From an uncultured Candidatus Saccharibacteria bacterium (GTDB taxonomy: Bacteria > Patescibacteriota > Minisyncoccia > Phycocordibacterales > CAIZLB01), in assembly GCA_964450605.1 (NCBI GenBank), contig CAYVEK010000002.1:199805-263804 (forward strand): a stretch of 64,000 nt of DNA. Reading direction: 5' to 3'. This document shows, piece by piece, positions 9,659 to 64,000 of this stretch. The notes below the pieces were generated by a model. It was not told the DNA's origin. It worked only from the letters and a program-made list of their open reading frames with translations, and searched no databases. Position numbers and translations under genes: made by a program. How positions within the stretch are numbered: position 1 is the first letter of the stretch; each line of letters starts with the position of its first letter.

Positions 9659-11461
9659 TTATGGAAGGTATGTAAGTGTTGTTGTATCAAGAGCTTCGAA
9701 TCCTGCGAACTGTGTTTGTGCAGATCCGCCTGTAGGTGTCCACTGGATACCTCGAACTCGAGCCTTGTAAGTAGCTCCTGAAGTTAGAAGAGCTGCTGGG
9801 AATGCTGCTGTAATCTCGAAGTTCTTAACAGCGCCTTTAGCAACTGTTGTAAGACCACTTTCTGCGAATACTGCTGCTGTTGTTGTTCCAACAACTGCTC
9901 CTGAAGCAACGTTTACTAGGTCAATTGTTGATGAAGCTGAAGCGTTGATGTTTCCACCTAGTGCTGTCAGACTTAGAACGAATTTAGCCTGGAATCCTGT
10001 TACTACAGAGTTTGTTCCTGTCTGTCGCTCAAGTGATGAAGAAACTTTTCCGAATCGTGGTACAGCTGGAGCAAAGTATGCCCATACAGTTGTTCCTGGG
10101 ATTAGAGATGACTGTGAGGCGATACCTGTTGAGCCATTTGGTTTCTCATACATAACTTGTGCAACTCGTGTAGATACAACTGTTCCTGAAGTTGTGTTTG
10201 CAGGAAGGTCAGCCTTGATTGAGAATGTTTTGATTGTATCTACTGGAACTGTAACATTGTAGTTTGTAAGATCGAATGTTACTGAACCTGAAGCTGTTGT
10301 TGAAGCTACAACTGATCGAGCGTCGATCATTGTTGATCCATCGTATAGGTATACGTTTGAAGGAAGTGTTCCACCTGTTCCGTTTGCTCCGGCTGCAGAT
10401 AGAAGTCCTGTGTTAACGGCTACTGTTACAGATGTAAGTTTTGATACTCCTGTCTTTGACTCAACTGCGAATGTAGAAGTAAGAACTTTTTCAGCTCCGT
10501 TTCCTGTTGTATTAACATCGTAGTTTGTAGAGTAAAGAGTTGTAGCATCATCCTGTGCTGTCATAGTAGATGTACCTGGTTTCTTGAATGTGTGTGTTCG
10601 AGAGTCAGATAGTGCGTTGTAACTACTGATTCCTCGTCCATCAACTGTTCGGATACCTGATGTACCATAAACATTGAATCGTACGTATCGGTCTGAGTCA
10701 ATTGAGTTTGAGTTTACAGAAACTGTCAATGTCTTGATAGTATCTTTAGCAACTTTAACTCCTAGACCAGAGATCTGTACGTAATACTTGTTAGGTGTAA
10801 CTGAAGTATCTCGTGAGAATGTTGATGAATTAACTGGGATTGTAGCTAGAACTGTTGATCCATCTTTAACTGTTACAGTATTGATCAAAGTTGAAGGGTT
10901 CTCCTGTGATGTAAATGTGTTTGATGTATCTACAGCAACTTCAAGGTTAACTCGCTCTACCATGATGTCTGACTGCTTAGCTTTGAACTCAACAGCGTAA
11001 ACATTAACATCTGAGTTAGATGTAACGTTTGGATTGTTAACAACTACTGGTGATACTCGAACCTCAGCAAATCCCTCTGAACCTACTAGAACATTATTAT
11101 TGTTCTGGTTATTGTTCTGGTTATTATTTCCTTGGTTATTGTTCTGGTTGTTGTTTCCCTGGTTATCATCAGCAGGACCTGCGTTTAGAACTTCTCGAGT
11201 CATAGGACCAACAAATCCTGTTCCTGGAAGATCATTAGCAAGCTGGAAGGCTACAACAGCTTTCTTTGTGATTGAACCAAAGTAACCTGTAGCGTTTCCA
11301 TTAAAGAATCCAGCGTCAGCTAGGTATTCTTGTAGAGCCTTAACATCGGCATTTTTCATACCCATCTTAAGGTTTTTGTTAAACATATAACCTTCTGCTA
11401 CTACACTTACTGAAAAAGCAAGTGCTAGAGCGAAGATTGATGTTGCAAGTAATTTTTTCAT
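9659..11461 (-). CDS. Secreted 600-aa surface protein. It has a signal peptide, an N-terminal peptidoglycan-binding (PG_binding_1-like) domain, an NNQGNN repeat, and a long Thr/Ser/Val-rich beta region.
   Basis: Signal MKKLLATSIFALALAFSVSVVA. Domain signature VKALQEYLADAGFF...GYFGSITKKAVVAFQ...LPGTGFVGPMT. An 18-bp tandem coding repeat lies at 11090-11180. Confidence 0.75.
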   Translation of the reverse strand: MKKLLATSIFALALAFSVSVVAEGYMFNKNLKMGMKNADVKALQEYLADAGFFNGNATGYFGSITKKAVVAFQLANDLPGTGFVGPMTREVLNAGPADDNQGNNNQNNNQGNNNQNNNQNNNNVLVGSEGFAEVRVSPVVVNNPNVTSNSDVNVYAVEFKAKQSDIMVERVNLEVAVDTSNTFTSQENPSTLINTVTVKDGSTVLATIPVNSSTFSRDTSVTPNKYYVQISGLGVKVAKDTIKTLTVSVNSNSIDSDRYVRFNVYGTSGIRTVDGRGISSYNALSDSRTHTFKKPGTSTMTAQDDATTLYSTNYDVNTTGNGAEKVLTSTFAVESKTGVSKLTSVTVAVNTGLLSAAGANGTGGTLPSNVYLYDGSTMIDARSVVASTTASGSVTFDLTNYNVTVPVDTIKTFSIKADLPANTTSGTVVSTRVAQVMYEKPNGSTGIASQSSLIPGTTVWAYFAPAVPRFGKVSSSLERQTGTNSVVTGFQAKFVLSLTALGGNINASASSTIDLVNVASGAVVGTTTAAVFAESGLTTVAKGAVKNFEITAAFPAALLTSGATYKARVRGIQWTPTGGSAQTQFAGFEALDTTTLTYLP

Positions 11462-36947: not shown

Positions 36948-37012
36948 GTGTAGATATTAACATATTAACAAACTAAACCATTCTGGTTATACTCAACACT
37001 TTATTTCCCTAG

Positions 37013-37099
37013 CGGAGGAAGTGGGATTCGAACCCACGGGGCAATTTCTCACCCGACAGTTTAGTAAACTGTTGATTTAAACCACTCATCCATTCCTCC
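37013..37099 (-). tRNA. Type II (long variable arm) tRNA-Ser-like gene with anticodon ACT and no encoded CCA.
   Basis: Reverse complement GGAGGAATGGATGAGTGGTTTAAATCAACAGTTTACTAAACTGTCGGGTGAGAAATTGCCCCGTGGGTTCGAATCCCACTTCCTCCG. It has a perfect 7-bp acceptor stem, a 3-bp D-stem and G73, all Ser identity features. The anticodon stem ACAGT/ACTGT closes the loop TTACTAA. Confidence 0.55.
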
Positions 37100-52235: not shown

Positions 52236-52308
52236 GGGCGATTAGCTCAGTTGGTAGAGCAACTCATTTACACTGAGAAGGTCGGGGGTTCAAGTCCCTC
52301 ATCGCCCA
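52236..52308 (+). tRNA. tRNA-Val (TAC).
   Basis: GGGCGATTAGCTCAGTTGGTAGAGCAACTCATTTACACTGAGAAGGTCGGGGGTTCAAGTCCCTCATCGCCCA. It is close to E. coli tRNA-Val(UAC) and is followed by a terminator hairpin at 52312-52350. Confidence 0.85.
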
Positions 52309-52415
52309 CAAAAAACAAAACACACTGTTGCAAACGCAAGGTGTGTTTTTGTTTTAATTGACACTTTAGAGGTTCGGAGTATGATGAGTTTAAATTCCAA
52401 CCACACACGAACTAT

Positions 52416-53147
52416 ATGAATAAAAATAAACTTGTTGAAGCATTCGGAACATCGAAAGTACTTCTCCCGGTTATACATGTATCCAGCAGAATACATGTAC
52501 CAGATCAGATCACCTTAGCCCTCCGCGGAGGGGCCCACGGAGTGTGGCTCATCTGCCACGGGCCTGGTGATAAAACCCGACAACTCATCGAAGCCTACAA
52601 GGTGGCTCGTGACAGTACGCTCGACTGGATTGGGCTCAACTTTTTGGGTGAAACAGACCCTGTCAGTATCATCCAAGAAGAACTCCCTCCGATAGACTAC
52701 CCAGGAGGACTGTGGATAGACCAAGGTGTTGAGGAGAGCTCCTCCAGTTTCAACACCGACAAGCTTCGTGGATTTTACAATCGTTATCGCGTCGCCTGCC
52801 CGAAAAGTCTCCTCTTCCGAGGTGTTGCCTTTAAAGGACAGCAGCCTTCTTACCCTTCAGGAATCCTTGCTGCTGTGGAGGTTGCAAAGTCTGGAATGGA
52901 CATACTCACCACAAGCGGACCAGGAACCGGACATGCTCCTGATATTGGGAAGATTCGAGAAATCCACACAGCTGCGAATGGAGCACCTGTCGCTGTTGCT
53001 AGTGGGCTAACCCCTGAAAACATCAAAAGGTTTATTCCTTATATCGACTGTGCGATGGTTAGTACCGGTGTTTGCAAACCTAACACCGACGAGTTCGATC
53101 CAAAAAAACTCACAGCCTTCGCAAAGGCTATGGGTCTCGAACCTTAA
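52416..53147 (+). CDS. BtpA/SgcQ-family TIM-barrel protein. The gene is GC-rich, about 52-55% against roughly 36% for the surroundings.
   Basis: C-terminal signature TTSGPGTGHAPDIGKIREIH...VAVASGLTPENIKRFIPYIDCAMVSTGV. Composition shifts abruptly at about 52490. Confidence 0.5.
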   Translation: MNKNKLVEAFGTSKVLLPVIHVSSRIHVPDQITLALRGGAHGVWLICHGPGDKTRQLIEAYKVARDSTLDWIGLNFLGETDPVSIIQEELPPIDYPGGLWIDQGVEESSSSFNTDKLRGFYNRYRVACPKSLLFRGVAFKGQQPSYPSGILAAVEVAKSGMDILTTSGPGTGHAPDIGKIREIHTAANGAPVAVASGLTPENIKRFIPYIDCAMVSTGVCKPNTDEFDPKKLTAFAKAMGLEP

Positions 53148-58803: not shown

Positions 58804-58889
58804 GGAGGAGTGGCAGAGAGGTCGATTGCACCTGTCTTGAAAACAGGAGGGCTGTCATGGTCCCGTGAGTTCGAATCTCACCTCCTCCG
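58804..58889 (+). tRNA. tRNA-Ser (TGA), type II.
   Basis: GGAGGAGTGGCAGAGAGGTCGATTGCACCTGTCTTGAAAACAGGAGGGCTGTCATGGTCCCGTGAGTTCGAATCTCACCTCCTCCG. G73. A terminator hairpin follows at 58950-58985. Confidence 0.85.
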
Positions 58890-59008
58890 CATTAAGAACC
58901 TGGGAGTAACATTGACCCATGTACCCATGAAAGCAGGGCGACCCAGGTGCTAACAAAAACCAGCAAATATAATGCTGGTTTTTGTTTTGTGTCTGAACAC
59001 ATAATTAA

Positions 59009-59764
59009 ATGCTAAAATGCTATTTAATGACAGAGGAAACACAAAACAGTGAGACTACTCCCGATCAAACAACAGCAGAAGGTACATCTGTTTTCAATGA
59101 TAGACGGGTAAAAATTATTAATTGGATGGAACCAAAAAGTTCTGTTTTGTGTAATCTATATAAAAGCGCTGTCATTAATCTGTATAGCGAACCACCAAAG
59201 TATGGCTGGTCCATATTGGTAGCTTATGCAATTCGAGAAATTACAAACCAATTACCTAATCATGTTGCTGATTTAGAAATATCCGACAGAGGCCTGAATC
59301 GTGACGGAGAAATACAAAAAATTGGAAATATCTGGACCGAACAACAATTAAGCTCTCTGATACCAACCGAGAACACGGATACGCCATCTTCGACTGATGA
59401 CCAGACAATAATTCCAATTCCTAGAGATCTCTTTATGATTTTAGCAGATCTAGTTGAAGATAATACTAAAATTGAAGATAGAAAATACCGTAAAGCCTAC
59501 AGGCTTTTTAAAGCGATGATCCCTGAAGGTGAATTTAAAGAGAAAGATCCTATAATCAATGAGTGGGTAGGTGTCACAGGCTGGTTTTCAAAGGATGGAA
59601 AGTTCCATGTAAACAAGAATAAGACGGAGGTCGGTGATGTTGATGAATATAAGAGAAACTTTGAAATGGTCGAAAATATACTAGTAGGAGCTATTCAAAG
59701 TAGAGAAAACTTTGGACAAACACTGACAGAACTAAATACAATATTAAATCATGCCAACAGATAA
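59009..59764 (+). CDS. Hypothetical protein, 251 aa. First gene of a coupled three-gene operon.
   Basis: ORF track. It overlaps the next gene by 14 nt. An alternative start is the ATG at 59027. Confidence 0.55.
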   Translation: MLKCYLMTEETQNSETTPDQTTAEGTSVFNDRRVKIINWMEPKSSVLCNLYKSAVINLYSEPPKYGWSILVAYAIREITNQLPNHVADLEISDRGLNRDGEIQKIGNIWTEQQLSSLIPTENTDTPSSTDDQTIIPIPRDLFMILADLVEDNTKIEDRKYRKAYRLFKAMIPEGEFKEKDPIINEWVGVTGWFSKDGKFHVNKNKTEVGDVDEYKRNFEMVENILVGAIQSRENFGQTLTELNTILNHANR

Positions 59765-62579
59765 CGAAATAAATCAGGTTATAGCACTCTTAATTGAGCC
59801 AGCTCAAAGAAGTTATTTCTTTGAGAATTTAAAAAATCCTTCTTGGGTAGCCCCGCTTTACGCTAAAGGTTTTTTTAAGCATGCTCCTAATATATTGCGT
59901 AATGAAAAGGAAGGCACTGTACAGTTTCCTATTTGGCCAGAATCTAAATTCCTAGCAAAAGTTGCAGCGCAGGCCGACCCTGTAATCCTATTAAAGATTA
60001 TCAAAGAAATTGAAACAGACAATATTAGAGTGAAGGAAGATGTTTTGGAGATAATTGCGAAGCTTCCTATTGATTCTGTAATTTTAATGTCCACTAAGGT
60101 TGTTAAATACCTTGAAGATCCGTATCTACATTTTGGCAATATTCCAGAGAAAATTGGAGATATTATTGAACGGCTGGCTTCGGAGAATAAAATCGAACAG
60201 GCACTTAAGATTGCTCAGGACTTACTCCGACCAATTGCTGAGGTTCAGACTGAGGAGGCAAAAAAAATAGGCCTTCATGCAAATCCAAAATCAAAATTTG
60301 AAATTTGGGATTATGAGCAAATTCTAAAAAATAAACTAACCACTTTAAATAAAACCGAACCCTTTCTTCTACTAGACTTGTTGGTAAATCTGCTATTTAC
60401 TGCTATTAAAGTTTCCAGAGGTGAAAATAGTGACGATTCAGACACTGAAGATTATTTGTATATCAGTAGAAGAAATGTGCGAGACGAACCAAGATCTCAT
60501 AACCACGAACTAGAGGGCTTACTTATCTCAAAGATAGTCTCTGTTGCTAATTTTGCTATTCAATCAGATTCTAAAAACTTTGAACCCGTATTAAAACTAC
60601 TTGAATCAAAAAAATATAATTTTTTCAATAAGATAATTCTTTACTTACTAGCTGAATATCCTAATTTAGATCAAGCTCGAGTCACATCGTATATAAAAGA
60701 AAAAAAGTTTTTTGACGCCAATTGGATTTCACCAGAATATGAATACTTACTTAGCAATGAATTTAAAAATCTCACTCCAGAAGATCAAAAGAACATAATT
60801 GATTGGATCGAAGCAGGACCAGATCTTGAAGTATTTAAAAGGTCTGAGAAATCTTGGACAGGTAATGAACCGACAAATGAAAAGATTTCAAAATACAAAG
60901 AGGCTTGGCAACTTCGTCACCTTCACGTGCTTAAGGATTCGCTTACAGGAAATTTAATGGATAGATATATTGAACTTGTAGCAAAGTACCCAAATTTTGA
61001 CGATAAGATTCAAGAAGGTGTATTTTACGCAGCGAACGAAAGCCCTAAAACAAAAGAAGAACTTCAAAAAATGTCAGTTGATCAGGTTATTAGCCTAATC
61101 AGAGATTGGAAACAAACTGGAGATGGATATGATGGTAAACCTACCAAAGATGGGCTGAGCATTCTCCTGCGAGAAATCATCAAAGAAAAACCTGTTGATT
61201 TTTCTGATAAATTAGATGAACTTAAAGGTATTGATTCGAACTATATCTTCTCTATTCTAATGGGTATAGAGAATGGTCTTGCTGTAAATAAAAATATTCA
61301 CTGGAGTAAAGTTTTATCTTTCTTACTTGAAATATTTTCTACTTGGAAAAAAGAAAAAAAAACTGCTGTGGATACAGAGTCGTTCGATAATGCATCTAGA
61401 AGACAAGGAATAAGTTTGCTGAATGCTGGTTTGAGATCAGGTTCTTTTGAACTTAAAGATAGAAAGGAAATCTGGAGTATTATCCAAATTGCATTAGCGG
61501 ATCCTGATCCAACAATTGAACAAGATGAAAAATTTGAAGATGAAATCACTCTTGCGATAAACTCAATTAGAGGCGAAGCAATGCATAGTGTGATCGAGTA
61601 CGCTCTTTGGCTAAAACGGCACTTCGAAAAGTTACCCGATGCGGCTACACTTATCTCAAGAGGTTTTGATGAAATGCCCGAAGTTTCAGAGACCCTAAAC
61701 AATTATCTGAAATTAGAAGTTGAACCAACCAAGGCCATTAGAAGTGTTTACGGAAGATATTTTCCTTGGATACACTTGCTTGATCCAAAGTGGGCTGTAT
61801 CTAATATTAATAATATTTTTTCTCACACTGAGGAATTACATGGTGATGGTGCATGGGATGCGTTTGTGACCTTAACTTCTCCATACGATAATCTTTTAGA
61901 ACCACTAAAAGTAGAATATAAATTCAGATTAGCTAACGCAAAATTTCCAGAAAAAGATAAGAAACAACCCCTCCGAGAACCAAACGAAAGATTAGTTGAA
62001 CATGTAGTTGCTTATTACTGGAGGAGCAAGCTCAGTCTAGAGGATGATTTGATTAGAGAACTCGTAATAACTGCTGATATAAGACTTCTTTCTCATGCTA
62101 TATCTTTTATGGGAAGAGTTATATACGGCGAAAAAGATACACCTACTGATATCTTAAAAAGATTTACTGAATTTTGGGGTTACGTTTTCACTTCAGTTTC
62201 TACAGATCCATCCAGAGTAGAAGCTCTGAGAGACTTCACTTGGTGGTTTGCTTCAAATAAGTTTGAGCCAAAATGGCTTCTAGACAATTTAGAGGCAGTC
62301 ATTGATGCTTCTGCTGGTATCGATAGCGAAGATTTTGCAATAGATAACCTCGTCTTACTTTCTAAAGACACTCCCGAAAGAGTAATTATTATCCTTGAAA
62401 AAATACTGAATACGGCAAGCAAGCCGTGGGTTGCACACAGTTCAGAAAAAGAAATTATAGAGATACTTAAGAATGCTCAATACTCTGATAGTGTAATAGC
62501 AAAAGATACCGCAAAGCGTTTGGTAGATGCACTGACTAGAAAACATATGTTTAAGTTTCTTGATGTATTAAGTAAATAA
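59751..62579 (+). CDS. Large (942 aa) predicted all-alpha cytoplasmic protein of unknown function.
   Basis: ORF track. No transmembrane helix or signal peptide, and no recognisable catalytic motif. It contains an R-x4-H stretch (SIRGEAMHSV). Confidence 0.6.
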   Translation: MPTDNEINQVIALLIEPAQRSYFFENLKNPSWVAPLYAKGFFKHAPNILRNEKEGTVQFPIWPESKFLAKVAAQADPVILLKIIKEIETDNIRVKEDVLEIIAKLPIDSVILMSTKVVKYLEDPYLHFGNIPEKIGDIIERLASENKIEQALKIAQDLLRPIAEVQTEEAKKIGLHANPKSKFEIWDYEQILKNKLTTLNKTEPFLLLDLLVNLLFTAIKVSRGENSDDSDTEDYLYISRRNVRDEPRSHNHELEGLLISKIVSVANFAIQSDSKNFEPVLKLLESKKYNFFNKIILYLLAEYPNLDQARVTSYIKEKKFFDANWISPEYEYLLSNEFKNLTPEDQKNIIDWIEAGPDLEVFKRSEKSWTGNEPTNEKISKYKEAWQLRHLHVLKDSLTGNLMDRYIELVAKYPNFDDKIQEGVFYAANESPKTKEELQKMSVDQVISLIRDWKQTGDGYDGKPTKDGLSILLREIIKEKPVDFSDKLDELKGIDSNYIFSILMGIENGLAVNKNIHWSKVLSFLLEIFSTWKKEKKTAVDTESFDNASRRQGISLLNAGLRSGSFELKDRKEIWSIIQIALADPDPTIEQDEKFEDEITLAINSIRGEAMHSVIEYALWLKRHFEKLPDAATLISRGFDEMPEVSETLNNYLKLEVEPTKAIRSVYGRYFPWIHLLDPKWAVSNINNIFSHTEELHGDGAWDAFVTLTSPYDNLLEPLKVEYKFRLANAKFPEKDKKQPLREPNERLVEHVVAYYWRSKLSLEDDLIRELVITADIRLLSHAISFMGRVIYGEKDTPTDILKRFTEFWGYVFTSVSTDPSRVEALRDFTWWFASNKFEPKWLLDNLEAVIDASAGIDSEDFAIDNLVLLSKDTPERVIIILEKILNTASKPWVAHSSEKEIIEILKNAQYSDSVIAKDTAKRLVDALTRKHMFKFLDVLSK

Positions 62580-62580
62580 T

Positions 62581-63111
62581 ATGAAGAGAAATCTAAACGA
62601 TTATGAGTACGAGATAGTAAATCAAATTCATATCAGTGAACTTTGTTTTACTATCTGTAAAACAACACCAATATTACAAGGACCGGGCAACCACTTGTTT
62701 CCGTACTTCTTTAACTTAAATATGTCTAAAGGAGTATTAATACTTCACAGCTTGCTTGATCCAACAGGTAAAGAAATTTCTCTTAAGAATTATATCCGAG
62801 AGAATAAAGCCATTCTTTCATCGAGAAAAGATTTCGATATATTTCTAAGTCACATATCAAAAATAACTGCAGAATTTGAAAAAATTACGCCGTGGCCATT
62901 ACGTCATAAAGTAATCGCTCATTTAGATTCAGGTTTTAAACACTCAGACTTTACATGTGCATACTTAACATCCGACAAACTTGATAACTTTATAAAAATA
63001 TCTACTGAGCTTAAAGACACCTTCTTTACTTTTTGTAATTATTCAAAAAATGATGAGCCATTTATGAAAATCAAAGAGCAAGTAGCATTTGCTCTTAGCG
63101 GTGTGAAATAG
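62581..63111 (+). CDS. Hypothetical 176-aa protein, possibly HEPN/Abi-like.
   Basis: It starts 1 nt after the stop of the 942-aa gene. An R-x5-H stretch (LRHKVIAHLD) is weak evidence for HEPN. Confidence 0.55.
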   Translation: MKRNLNDYEYEIVNQIHISELCFTICKTTPILQGPGNHLFPYFFNLNMSKGVLILHSLLDPTGKEISLKNYIRENKAILSSRKDFDIFLSHISKITAEFEKITPWPLRHKVIAHLDSGFKHSDFTCAYLTSDKLDNFIKISTELKDTFFTFCNYSKNDEPFMKIKEQVAFALSGVK

Positions 63112-63116
63112 CACTT

Positions 63117-64000
63117 CTATTCCTTCAGAAGAGTAATCTTCTTATCTTTCAACGTTAACCTACTTCTCAAATGTCCCATCAGCTCACGCTTCTCTAGAGG
63201 GGTTCCTTCTCGCAGTACGTACTTGGCGTATTCTCTCGTATTCACATCATCCTCGTTGATGCTGTATTTTGGCGTGCCTTTGGTCGCTAGCCTCTGAAGC
63301 CTGTTGAATCGTTTGATTTCTTCTTCGAGCTTCATCCTCATGCCAAGCTCGTTGATACTTACCTTGTCGATGACCTTAAATAGTTCCTCAATTAGTTCTT
63401 CCTCTCGGATGTATTTGTTCTTGCAATTTCTGTCTTTAGATTTCGAGCATGAATAGTAGATGTACTTTGCGTTAGTGCCGTCCTTGAGTAGCTTGTACTT
63501 CTCCTGTGCGGTTATGCCTGACTCGCACATACCGCAGGTGAATAGCTTTGTGAATGCGAACTCTCGATTCTCTCGCACTATCTTGTCGCGCTTCAGTTGC
63601 TCTTGTGCTTTTCTGAATAATTCTTCAGTGATAATCGGAGTATGCTTTCCCTGATACCAGTTGCCTGAATCCTTAGGATACTCGAATGGCCCGTAGTAGA
63701 TCGGATTTTCGAATGTTCGGTACACTCCAGAGAGCGTTAGTGGCTTGTTGCCTCGAGTATGGAAATTCAGATCAAACCTTAGCCAGTTGTATACCCTTCT
63801 TCCGCTCCATCCTTCGAGTGCAACTTTTTCGAACATCTTCTTCACTATGGGTGCTCTATCTGGATCAATTGCTATCTGGCACTTCCTGTCCATGAGTTTC
63901 TGATTGAGATACCCGAGAGGTGCCATGCCTGGCCACAGTCCCATTTCCACTCTCGTCCGCAATCCTCGCTTCACGTTGATTCCTCTATTATCGTTTTCAA
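63117..64000 (-). mobile_element. Large serine recombinase (integrase). Only the 3' part of the gene is in the window, encoding the recombinase domain and zinc ribbon; the N-terminal catalytic domain lies beyond the window edge. The gene is GC-richer than its neighbours.
   Basis: Recombinase-domain pattern GLWPGMAPLGY...IDPDRAPIVKKMF. Zinc ribbon CGMCES...YYSCSKSKDRNC followed by a coiled coil. The ORF is open to the window edge. The track start is a GTG, and my coordinate count differs from the track by 1 nt near the end of the window. Confidence 0.7.

Follow-up and report, generated by a model that had tools for sequence, protein, structure and literature searches.

Dsr1 (defence-associated sirtuin 1) was reportedly described by Gao et al. 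2020, and Rousset et al. 2022 are said to have described P2/P4-type defence hotspots beside the integrase of a prophage or satellite. Avs7, Dsr1 and other defence proteins combine one common helical-repeat sensor with differing N-terminal effectors, versions split between adjacent genes exist among them, and the phage major capsid protein is the trigger of both SeAvs7 and EcDsr1 (Nature 2026;657:735, PMC13581612). When the N-terminal effector domains are disrupted, toxicity and defence are abolished, and host EF-Tu is a scaffold for Avs7 (preprint PMC12803255). Here, we analyze a 64,000-nt stretch of DNA, hereafter the window, from an uncultured Candidatus Saccharibacteria bacterium (contig CAYVEK010000002.1, positions 199,805 to 263,804), and within it a locus of three genes, A, B and C, that lies between a tRNA-Ser(TGA) gene and the gene of a large serine recombinase (LSR).

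We consider it probable that genes A and B encode an abortive-infection, anti-phage pair that is built like Dsr1, in which the helical protein A replaces the SIR2 domain, and that the pair is carried as cargo of an LSR element beside tRNA-Ser(TGA). An earlier annotation of the window made from its letters alone, the sequence-only reading, had located the tRNA gene, a terminator and the three genes with their overlap and 1-nt gap, all of which are found where it had placed them (Table 1), and had offered no function for any of the three proteins.

Gene B resembles the sensor of Dsr1 and Avs7

Among the proteins of genes A, B and C, only B has a significant match in PADLOC. The Dsr1 model PDLC04166 aligns to residues 5–937 of B across model positions 307–1217 of 1227 (E = 3.2e-48), and this matched part is everything that follows the model's SIR2 domain. 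A tblastn comparison of B with plasmids recovered Bacillus cereus-group genes annotated as 'SIR2 family protein' (Dsr1-type), haloarchaeal genes annotated as 'AAA family ATPase' (STAND/Avs7-type) and a Streptomyces plasmid fusion protein. Homologues of B, with identities from 20 to 71%, are spread over many phyla. Because the model match starts after the SIR2 domain, and because the SIR2-family and AAA-ATPase matches fit the published pattern of a shared sensor, B is predicted to be a Dsr1/Avs7-type sensor carrying no effector of its own; one of the three proteins that the sequence-only reading had left unassigned has thereby gained a putative function.

Other searches with B returned no match in Pfam, NCBIfam or PHROGs and none among PDB sequences, using both the single sequence and the family profile. 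Pfam and PADLOC found no SIR2 domain in A or B, and an AAA, NACHT or NB-ARC domain (STAND NTPase) was likewise not matched in either protein; AAA_16 was found in one distant homologue of B (P0014). The stretch RGEAMH in B had been put forward as a possible HEPN RNase motif. It sits within the sensor repeats, its R607 is invariant, and its H612 is replaced by S, D, E or N in 5 of 10 aligned homologues, the distant ones, which refutes that proposal.

Gene A adjoins the sensor gene in nearly every locus

We scanned species-representative genomes with B and obtained 64 B loci (L017–L080 in our numbering). An A-family open reading frame (ORF) abuts B on its upstream side in 57 of these loci and is fused to it in two more, while the remaining five consist of two at contig ends and three Poribacteria loci with A deleted. 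The hosts of the A–B loci belong to at least eight phyla and include Poribacteria, Acidobacteriota, Planctomycetota, Bacillota, Chloroflexota, Actinomycetota, Myxococcota and Parcubacteria, and one locus is on an Acidobacteria plasmid. The same order is seen in metagenomes, where A is directly upstream of B in all relatives with a readable context (L002–L011), down to a B identity of 21%. In single-chain fusions of about 1180 aa, A is at the N-terminus; the match to the Dsr1 model in two of them (P0024 and P0074) begins at residue 217–219, directly after A. Since A adjoins B in 57 of 64 loci and takes the position of SIR2 in the fusions, we infer that A is the effector subunit. One metagenomic protein of 1261 aa (P0113) joins a LexA-type winged-helix (helix-turn-helix) domain, an A domain and a Dsr1-type sensor in one chain, an architecture that hints at autoregulation or at tethering to DNA in some variants.

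Altered loci were also observed. In the three Poribacteria loci (L040, L053 and L059, at about 9900–10010), B is intact and A has been replaced by unrelated sequence, with its last ~30 nt kept; these loci look like orphaned sensors. There is a frame break in B in L024 and another in A in L032.

Direct reading of the junction between the two genes (cATGCCAACAGATAA) shows that they share 14 nt and that B is read in the +1 frame relative to A; the nucleotide sequence of the junction is conserved across phyla (window 59736–59764, compared with the 64 genome loci). In most relatives, the ATG of B is 15 nt upstream of the one used in the window (ATGAAATCTTGGAAGAAGCCAAC..TGA), so that A and B overlap by 29 nt and a TAAGGAG falls within A; this upstream ATG has been lost in the window lineage, whose B begins 15 nt later with ATG-CCA-ACA (MPT). 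The same bases encode the C-terminus of A (..DEILEEANx) and the N-terminus of B (MKSWKKPT..), and both peptide motifs are found in tandem in the fused genes. The junction is conserved because the C-terminal helix of A and the N-terminus of B are dual-coded, with the Shine–Dalgarno (SD) sequence and the ATG of B internal to A. We also considered a +1 frameshift that would join A and B into one product, and rejected it: there is no slippery site, and dual coding together with the internal SD and ATG explains the junction. The two halves of a fissioned gene are translationally coupled at this junction in the usual way.

Gene A belongs to an unannotated, all-helical family

A HMMER search of 1.8 billion cluster representatives (E ≤ 1e-3, with clustering at 50% identity) found 254 representative clusters of the A family, mostly stand-alone proteins of 220–250 aa, whereas a word-indexed search with A found one close homologue only. 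Neither the single sequence of A nor its family members, profile and consensus matched an entry in Pfam, NCBIfam, PADLOC, PHROGs or the PDB. The AlphaFold2 model of A, built from an alignment of 93 sequences, has high confidence (pLDDT 84.5) and is made up entirely of helices, 8–9 in number. Comparing this model with the PDB by Foldseek, which had earlier been suggested as a way to a function, returned nothing below E 0.5. A is related to SIR2 neither in sequence nor in fold, and a profile comparison of the A and C families by hhalign finds them unrelated (probability 0.2%).

The same alignment contains a set of near-invariant polar residues, namely H73, R76, E77 and N80 (motif HAVREIxNRLP), W186, H200, E222 and N250, which suggests a putative active site. 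One candidate relationship was set aside: the pPIWI-associated nuclease model pP_pnuc_1 matched the family consensus over the region of the REI motif at E 0.05, and four of the 93 members reached an E of at least 0.001, which is too weak to use. A shorter A-like sub-type, with the motif [AS]HL[LF]RE[IL]ESSLR, is fused to the sensor in L024 and on a plasmid of Streptomyces sp. NBC_00212 (Table 1). A 'HEPN-like RNase'-sensor fusion has been illustrated from Streptomyces sp. NBC_00271 (Nature 2026;657:735, PMC13581612), and the NBC_00212 protein may be of the same kind.

A proposed mechanism and the condition of the window copy

By homology to the Avs7/Dsr1 sensor, B would bind a conserved late structural protein of the phage, most likely the major capsid protein. 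Binding of the trigger would activate the associated A subunit, and activated A would damage the infected cell or the phage, resulting in abortive infection. The identity of the trigger, the activation of A by B and the abortive outcome are all modelled on characterized relatives. For the chemistry of A, a HEPN-like nuclease is the leading, if weakly supported, guess: A may cleave RNA, or nucleic acid more broadly, at a site made of the conserved H/R-E-x-x-N/H/E residues. Gene C would be a distinct, AbiU2-like HEPN gene whose only tie to the pair is co-transcription.

Several points weigh against this reading. The proposed trigger is extrapolated from proteins at about 20–25% identity, and the A family is known from sequences and a predicted model. 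Across the family, only 50 of the 93 members have an R-x5-H that precedes the REI motif and ends at H73. The A protein of the window itself has W67 in place of the R of this motif, Y73 in place of a His that is 95% conserved and N152 in place of a His that is 80% conserved, and its activity could consequently be altered or lost. A repeat of the tRNA 3' end, as an attachment (att) site, was not found within 7–8 kb, and neither was the far boundary of the element on a contig that ends 2.1 kb past the window.

The substitutions at positions 67, 73 and 152 would also be expected if the pair in the window were a decaying or inactive remnant, a sensor with a catalytically dead effector that is carried passively in the island, and decayed versions do occur elsewhere (the three loci without A, and the frame breaks in L024 and L032). 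We think this unlikely. In the window, the ORFs of A and B are both intact and still coupled, and a contig fragment with an A 94% identical to the window's (P0001) shows that the gene is maintained. The window's A keeps R76, E77, N80, W186, H200, E222 and N250. At position 73, Tyr is the most frequent substitute for His and is shared with three other members, and H152 is also absent from two intact close relatives that keep H73 (L002 and L004).

Gene C is a separate HEPN candidate

The HEPN assignment that the sequence-only reading had cautiously proposed for C has gained support. In 14 homologues of C (47–59% identity), the stretch LRHKVIAHLD has an R108 conserved in at least 90% and invariant H109, K110, H114 and D116, followed by an invariant H121-S-D-F124. 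Pfam HEPN_AbiU2 matches 8 of the 14 homologues, always below the gathering threshold. Comparing C itself with Pfam, NCBIfam and PHROGs yielded weak AbiU2 matches and no significant ones. C combines a predicted four-helix, up-down bundle with a conserved R-x4-6-H, as HEPN proteins do.

The three genes might alternatively form one three-component system, with B as the sensor, C as the HEPN RNase effector and A as an adaptor or regulator. All three are on one strand, separated by a 14-nt overlap and a 1-nt gap (a single T between the TAA stop of B and the ATG of C), and the R-x5-H motif is convincing in C, while A has no recognizable catalytic fold. However, homologues of C are absent from all other A–B loci that we examined (the metagenomic L002–L013 and the 64 genome loci), and they are found elsewhere without A–B (L014, L015 and L016), even beside a recombinase of the window's type: in L014, the C homologue directly follows a tRNA-Ser(GCT) and adjoins a recombinase 78% identical to the window's. 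A–B pairs and fusions, for their part, are self-sufficient units in many phyla. We give the three-component system little credence. Because C is missing from the other A–B loci and is found alone, it is placed outside the A–B module, as an independent, AbiU2-like HEPN candidate and not a third component. The three-gene operon of the sequence-only reading thus holds as an adjacency and fails as a functional unit, as A and B alone are co-conserved.

Does the output come from A?

A different division of labor would make A an inhibitory or chaperone subunit, with the output coming from B itself or from a host factor that B recruits. Domain, profile and fold searches assign no enzymatic fold to A, and the scaffolding of Avs7 by host EF-Tu (PMC12803255) offers a precedent for recruiting a host factor. 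Yet in the fused proteins, A sits precisely where Dsr1 has its effector; B matches the sensor part of the Dsr1 model only, and no catalytic domain; the N-terminal domain is needed for toxicity in characterized relatives (PMC12803255); and the invariant polar residues of A are typical of an active site. This division of roles appears quite improbable to us, and A as the effector subunit, judged by its position and by being linked to B in almost all loci examined, is the reading that we carry forward.

A recombinase and a tRNA gene frame a variable slot

The recombinase on the minus strand has the Pfam domains Recombinase and Zn_ribbon_recom within the window and matches the integrase family phrog_95 (E = 8e-36). 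It is complete on an overlapping public contig (L001, whose position 1 is window position 58865 and which reaches 2.1 kb past the window), where its 443 aa correspond to window 63117–64448 and include the Resolvase domain. The LSR domain set of Resolvase catalytic domain, Recombinase domain and zinc ribbon is therefore complete, and the PDB match is to SPbeta YokA/SprA (E = 2e-12). The GC content of the recombinase gene is 0.45–0.46, compared with 0.36, 0.35 and 0.32 for A, B and C, 0.355 for the surroundings and 0.38 for the whole window, in agreement with the GC-richer, partial LSR recognized in the sequence-only reading. The cargo of A, B and C occupies 4.2 kb between the tRNA-Ser on the plus strand and the integrase on the minus strand, and DpnII-type methyltransferases lie beyond the integrase (Table 1). 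The gene call on L001 uses an alternative ATG for gene A, at 59027.

Table 1. Features of the A–B–C locus, its flank beyond the window and two related fusions (window coordinates unless a contig is named)
Feature	Position	Strand	Description
tRNA-Ser(TGA)	58804-58890	+	ARAGORN and Rfam; chromosomal boundary of the island; 3' end toward cargo and recombinase
Terminator-like hairpin	58952-58986	+	14-bp stem followed by a T run; between tRNA-Ser and gene A
Gene A	59009-59764	+	251 aa; all-alpha, unannotated family; putative effector subunit
A/B overlap ATGCCAACAGATAA	59751-59764	+	14 nt; translational-coupling junction
Gene B	59751-62579	+	942 aa; predicted Dsr1/Avs7-type sensor, without SIR2 and without STAND ATPase
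Gene C	62581-63111	+	176 aa; stand-alone, four-helix HEPN candidate, AbiU2-like
Large serine recombinase	63117-64000	-	cut by the window end; putative integrase of the element
N6/N4 methyltransferase and D12-class, Dam-like methyltransferase	L001 5721-7230 = window 64585-66094		facing each other; past the recombinase
Short-A + sensor fusion	L121 3395-6667		Streptomyces sp. NBC_00212 plasmid NZ_CP108116.1, WP_331721222.1
Short-A + sensor fusion	L024 6597-10078		Parcubacteria metagenome-assembled genome; frame break inside the sensor; directly after window-type recombinase

A scan of metagenomes with the PilM gene encoded in the window found contigs around the orthologous tRNA-Ser site (L081–L084). 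Two are short, close relatives that end at the tRNA (L081 and L082), and an empty site in a close relative was not observed. The other two (L083 and L084) come from hosts only distantly related to that of the window, in which PilM is 24–25% identical to the window's and the host gene order is kept: tRNA-Leu, tRNA-Val, tRNA-Arg, PilM, a csaA-like gene, ruvX and tRNA-Ser(TGA). Their recombinases share 70–75% protein and 70–76% DNA identity with the window's, and the cargo is entirely different. In L083, a 337-aa protein with an RNKIEH motif is encoded between the tRNA and the integrase, and beyond the integrase are a type I restriction-modification (R-M) system, PD-T7-4 (E = 4.5e-80) and a CBASS cyclase (E = 3.6e-88) with a transmembrane protein. 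L084 encodes an ATPase-Toprim protein that resembles OLD/GajA, together with three proteins of small or medium size that carry RN(x3-4)H motifs. The notion that A, B and C are housekeeping genes of the lineage that happen to be beside tRNA-Ser, which would suit their host-like GC content, is refuted by these different genes in a kept synteny, by the patchy distribution of A–B over unrelated phyla with B-family genes on plasmids, and by the position of A–B among R-M and other defence genes; we give it practically no weight, and the three genes are not conserved core genes.

The unannotated RN(x3-4)H proteins of L083 and L084 (337, 403, 129 and 179 aa) have no Pfam or PADLOC match, except that the 179-aa protein of L084 has a marginal match to AbiU2 (E = 0.048). 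They may be further HEPN-type defence genes. The 179-aa protein was also tried as a relative of C and rejected, as the motif alone aligns (probability 18%).

Further relatives show the same association. The window's recombinase is 66–78% identical in amino acids to those of L014, L024, L083 and L084, and in these relatives the gene lies 1–5 kb from tRNA-Ser. In the Parcubacteria contig L024, the recombinase (66%) is found between a type III R-M system and a fused A–B gene. A close relative of B (L004, 69% identity) adjoins a two-methylase, DpnII-type R-M system and a serine recombinase that is 38% identical to the window's. The sequence-only reading had proposed defence cargo on or near an integrative element at a tRNA gene, and these recombinase relatives beside tRNA-Ser, with their differing defence cargo, bear it out. 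The locus is accessory and lies within a recombinase-associated defence island. As to hosts, a methyltransferase of the island falls into a cluster of at least 90% identity with proteins from metagenome-assembled genomes of Candidatus Doudnabacteria and Paceibacterota, which points to a host range within the Patescibacteria, or candidate phyla radiation (CPR).

A scan of IMG/VR found 36 contigs (L085–L120) with the recombinase family at 45–86% identity. In 13 of these, a tRNA gene on the opposite strand follows the integrase stop at a distance of 0.12–4.7 kb and in most cases marks the very end of the predicted provirus. The gap between integrase and tRNA is either minimal (124–151 nt) or filled with variable genes (0.8–4.7 kb). 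Recombinases that are closer to the window's (down to 52%) are paired with tRNA-Ser(TGA or GCT), and others (48–63%) with tRNA-Gln, Glu, Asp or Asn; the choice of tRNA target may therefore track the divergence of the recombinase. With the IMG/VR contigs counted in, the close relatives beside tRNA-Ser share 66–86% of their amino acids with the window's enzyme. Three of the recombinase contigs also carry B-family genes, which a hidden Markov model search of the recombinase loci revealed after scanning the viral contigs for the pattern of the B alignment had given no hits.

The sequence-only reading had proposed looking for a copy of the tRNA-Ser 3' end as a direct repeat, and none was found. Serine integrases need no att homology, and for this reason the direct-repeat test is not diagnostic for an LSR. 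The recurrent, convergent placement of the integrase toward a tRNA at contig ends supports integration, and we interpret the window as containing the filled cargo slot, from integrase to att, of a putative LSR element beside tRNA-Ser(TGA).

Other observations in the window

Two features outside the locus deserve mention. A tRNA-Ser(ACT), with the anticodon loop TTACTAA, is encoded at 37012–37099 on the minus strand, and in one of the IMG/VR contigs (L094), a tRNA-Ser(act) likewise adjoins a tRNA-Ser(gct). An A at position 34 of tRNA-Ser is unusual in bacteria, where GCU is the normal anticodon. Separately, a 243-aa ORF at 52416–53147 on the plus strand has a GC content of 0.47–0.53 against a background of about 0.35 and directly follows a tRNA-Val(tac) (52236–52309). 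It has no match among PDB sequences, and it may be a second foreign insertion beside a tRNA gene.

Implications

A sizeable, unannotated family of candidate effectors partners a putative capsid-sensing sensor in nearly every locus examined, mostly as a separate subunit, and this makes A–B attractive for studying how sensors of the Avs7/Dsr1 type could activate an effector in trans. CPR bacteria are regarded as having few defence systems, and the locus adds a candidate system of the pattern-recognition type, distinct from R-M, to Patescibacteria-like genomes. The recurrent slot between serine integrase and tRNA can be mined for defence genes, as it holds several unannotated genes, some with R-N-x3-4-H motifs.

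A bolder claim is that the A family constitutes a novel class of immune effectors, with a chemistry unlike the NADase, nuclease and protease outputs, that is paired with a capsid sensor, and that the slot is a new defence hotspot in the CPR. We regard this claim as rather doubtful. If it were true, A–B would be a natural two-chain sensor/effector system for dissecting activation, and the tRNA-linked serine-integrase slot would be a previously unrecognized CPR hotspot. The locus is a testable lead on an uncharacterized effector and not a new principle.

Comparison with known systems

The closest match in design is Dsr1. The entire length of B can be aligned with the last ~900 residues of the Dsr1 model, the A+B fusions have the same order of an N-terminal effector followed by the sensor in about 1200 aa, and both are found in defence islands. 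In contrast to Dsr1, however, SIR2 is not detected in A or B, and NAD+ depletion is therefore not expected; the putative effector is an unrelated, all-helical family encoded by a separate, overlapping gene, whereas Dsr1 is a single polypeptide. A–B is thus predicted to be built like Dsr1 and yet not to be Dsr1, as it lacks the defining SIR2 domain and is divided over two proteins. A defence finder that works by homology could wrongly name B as Dsr1, and the resulting prediction of NAD+ depletion would be wrong.

Homology of the sensor to the TPR-like, bilobed domain of Avs7 and Dsr1 and an exchangeable N-terminal effector place A–B, as far as sequence can tell, in the shared-sensor group of Avs7 and Dsr1 (Nature 2026;657:735, Extended Data Fig. 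2). A–B differs from Avs7 in having no match to a STAND NTPase, and scaffolding by EF-Tu has been shown for Avs7 only. The A family may correspond to the 'HEPN-like' or 'Unk' class of that study (Nature 2026;657:735).

Compared with the HEPN proteins of abortive infection (AbiU2, AbiA-HEPN, RnlA/LsoA and HEPN-MNT), the Pfam scores of C are all sub-threshold. A differs from HEPN proteins in having no family-wide R-x4-6-H, about eight helices instead of a minimal HEPN fold and no sequence-profile link.

With respect to its setting, the putative element resembles the P2/P4-type hotspots in its conserved integrase and its variable anti-phage slot, which extends up to an attachment end at a tRNA. 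It differs from them in having an LSR instead of a tyrosine integrase and in hosts that appear to be CPR bacteria; the element may be a prophage or an integrative island. We found no description of a cargo slot between a serine integrase and a tRNA in CPR-type genomes.

Exchangeable effectors and split genes in the shared-sensor group are already published (Nature 2026;657:735, PMC13581612). What Pfam, NCBIfam, PADLOC, PHROGs and the PDB do not contain is the A family, together with its near-constant pairing with the sensor.

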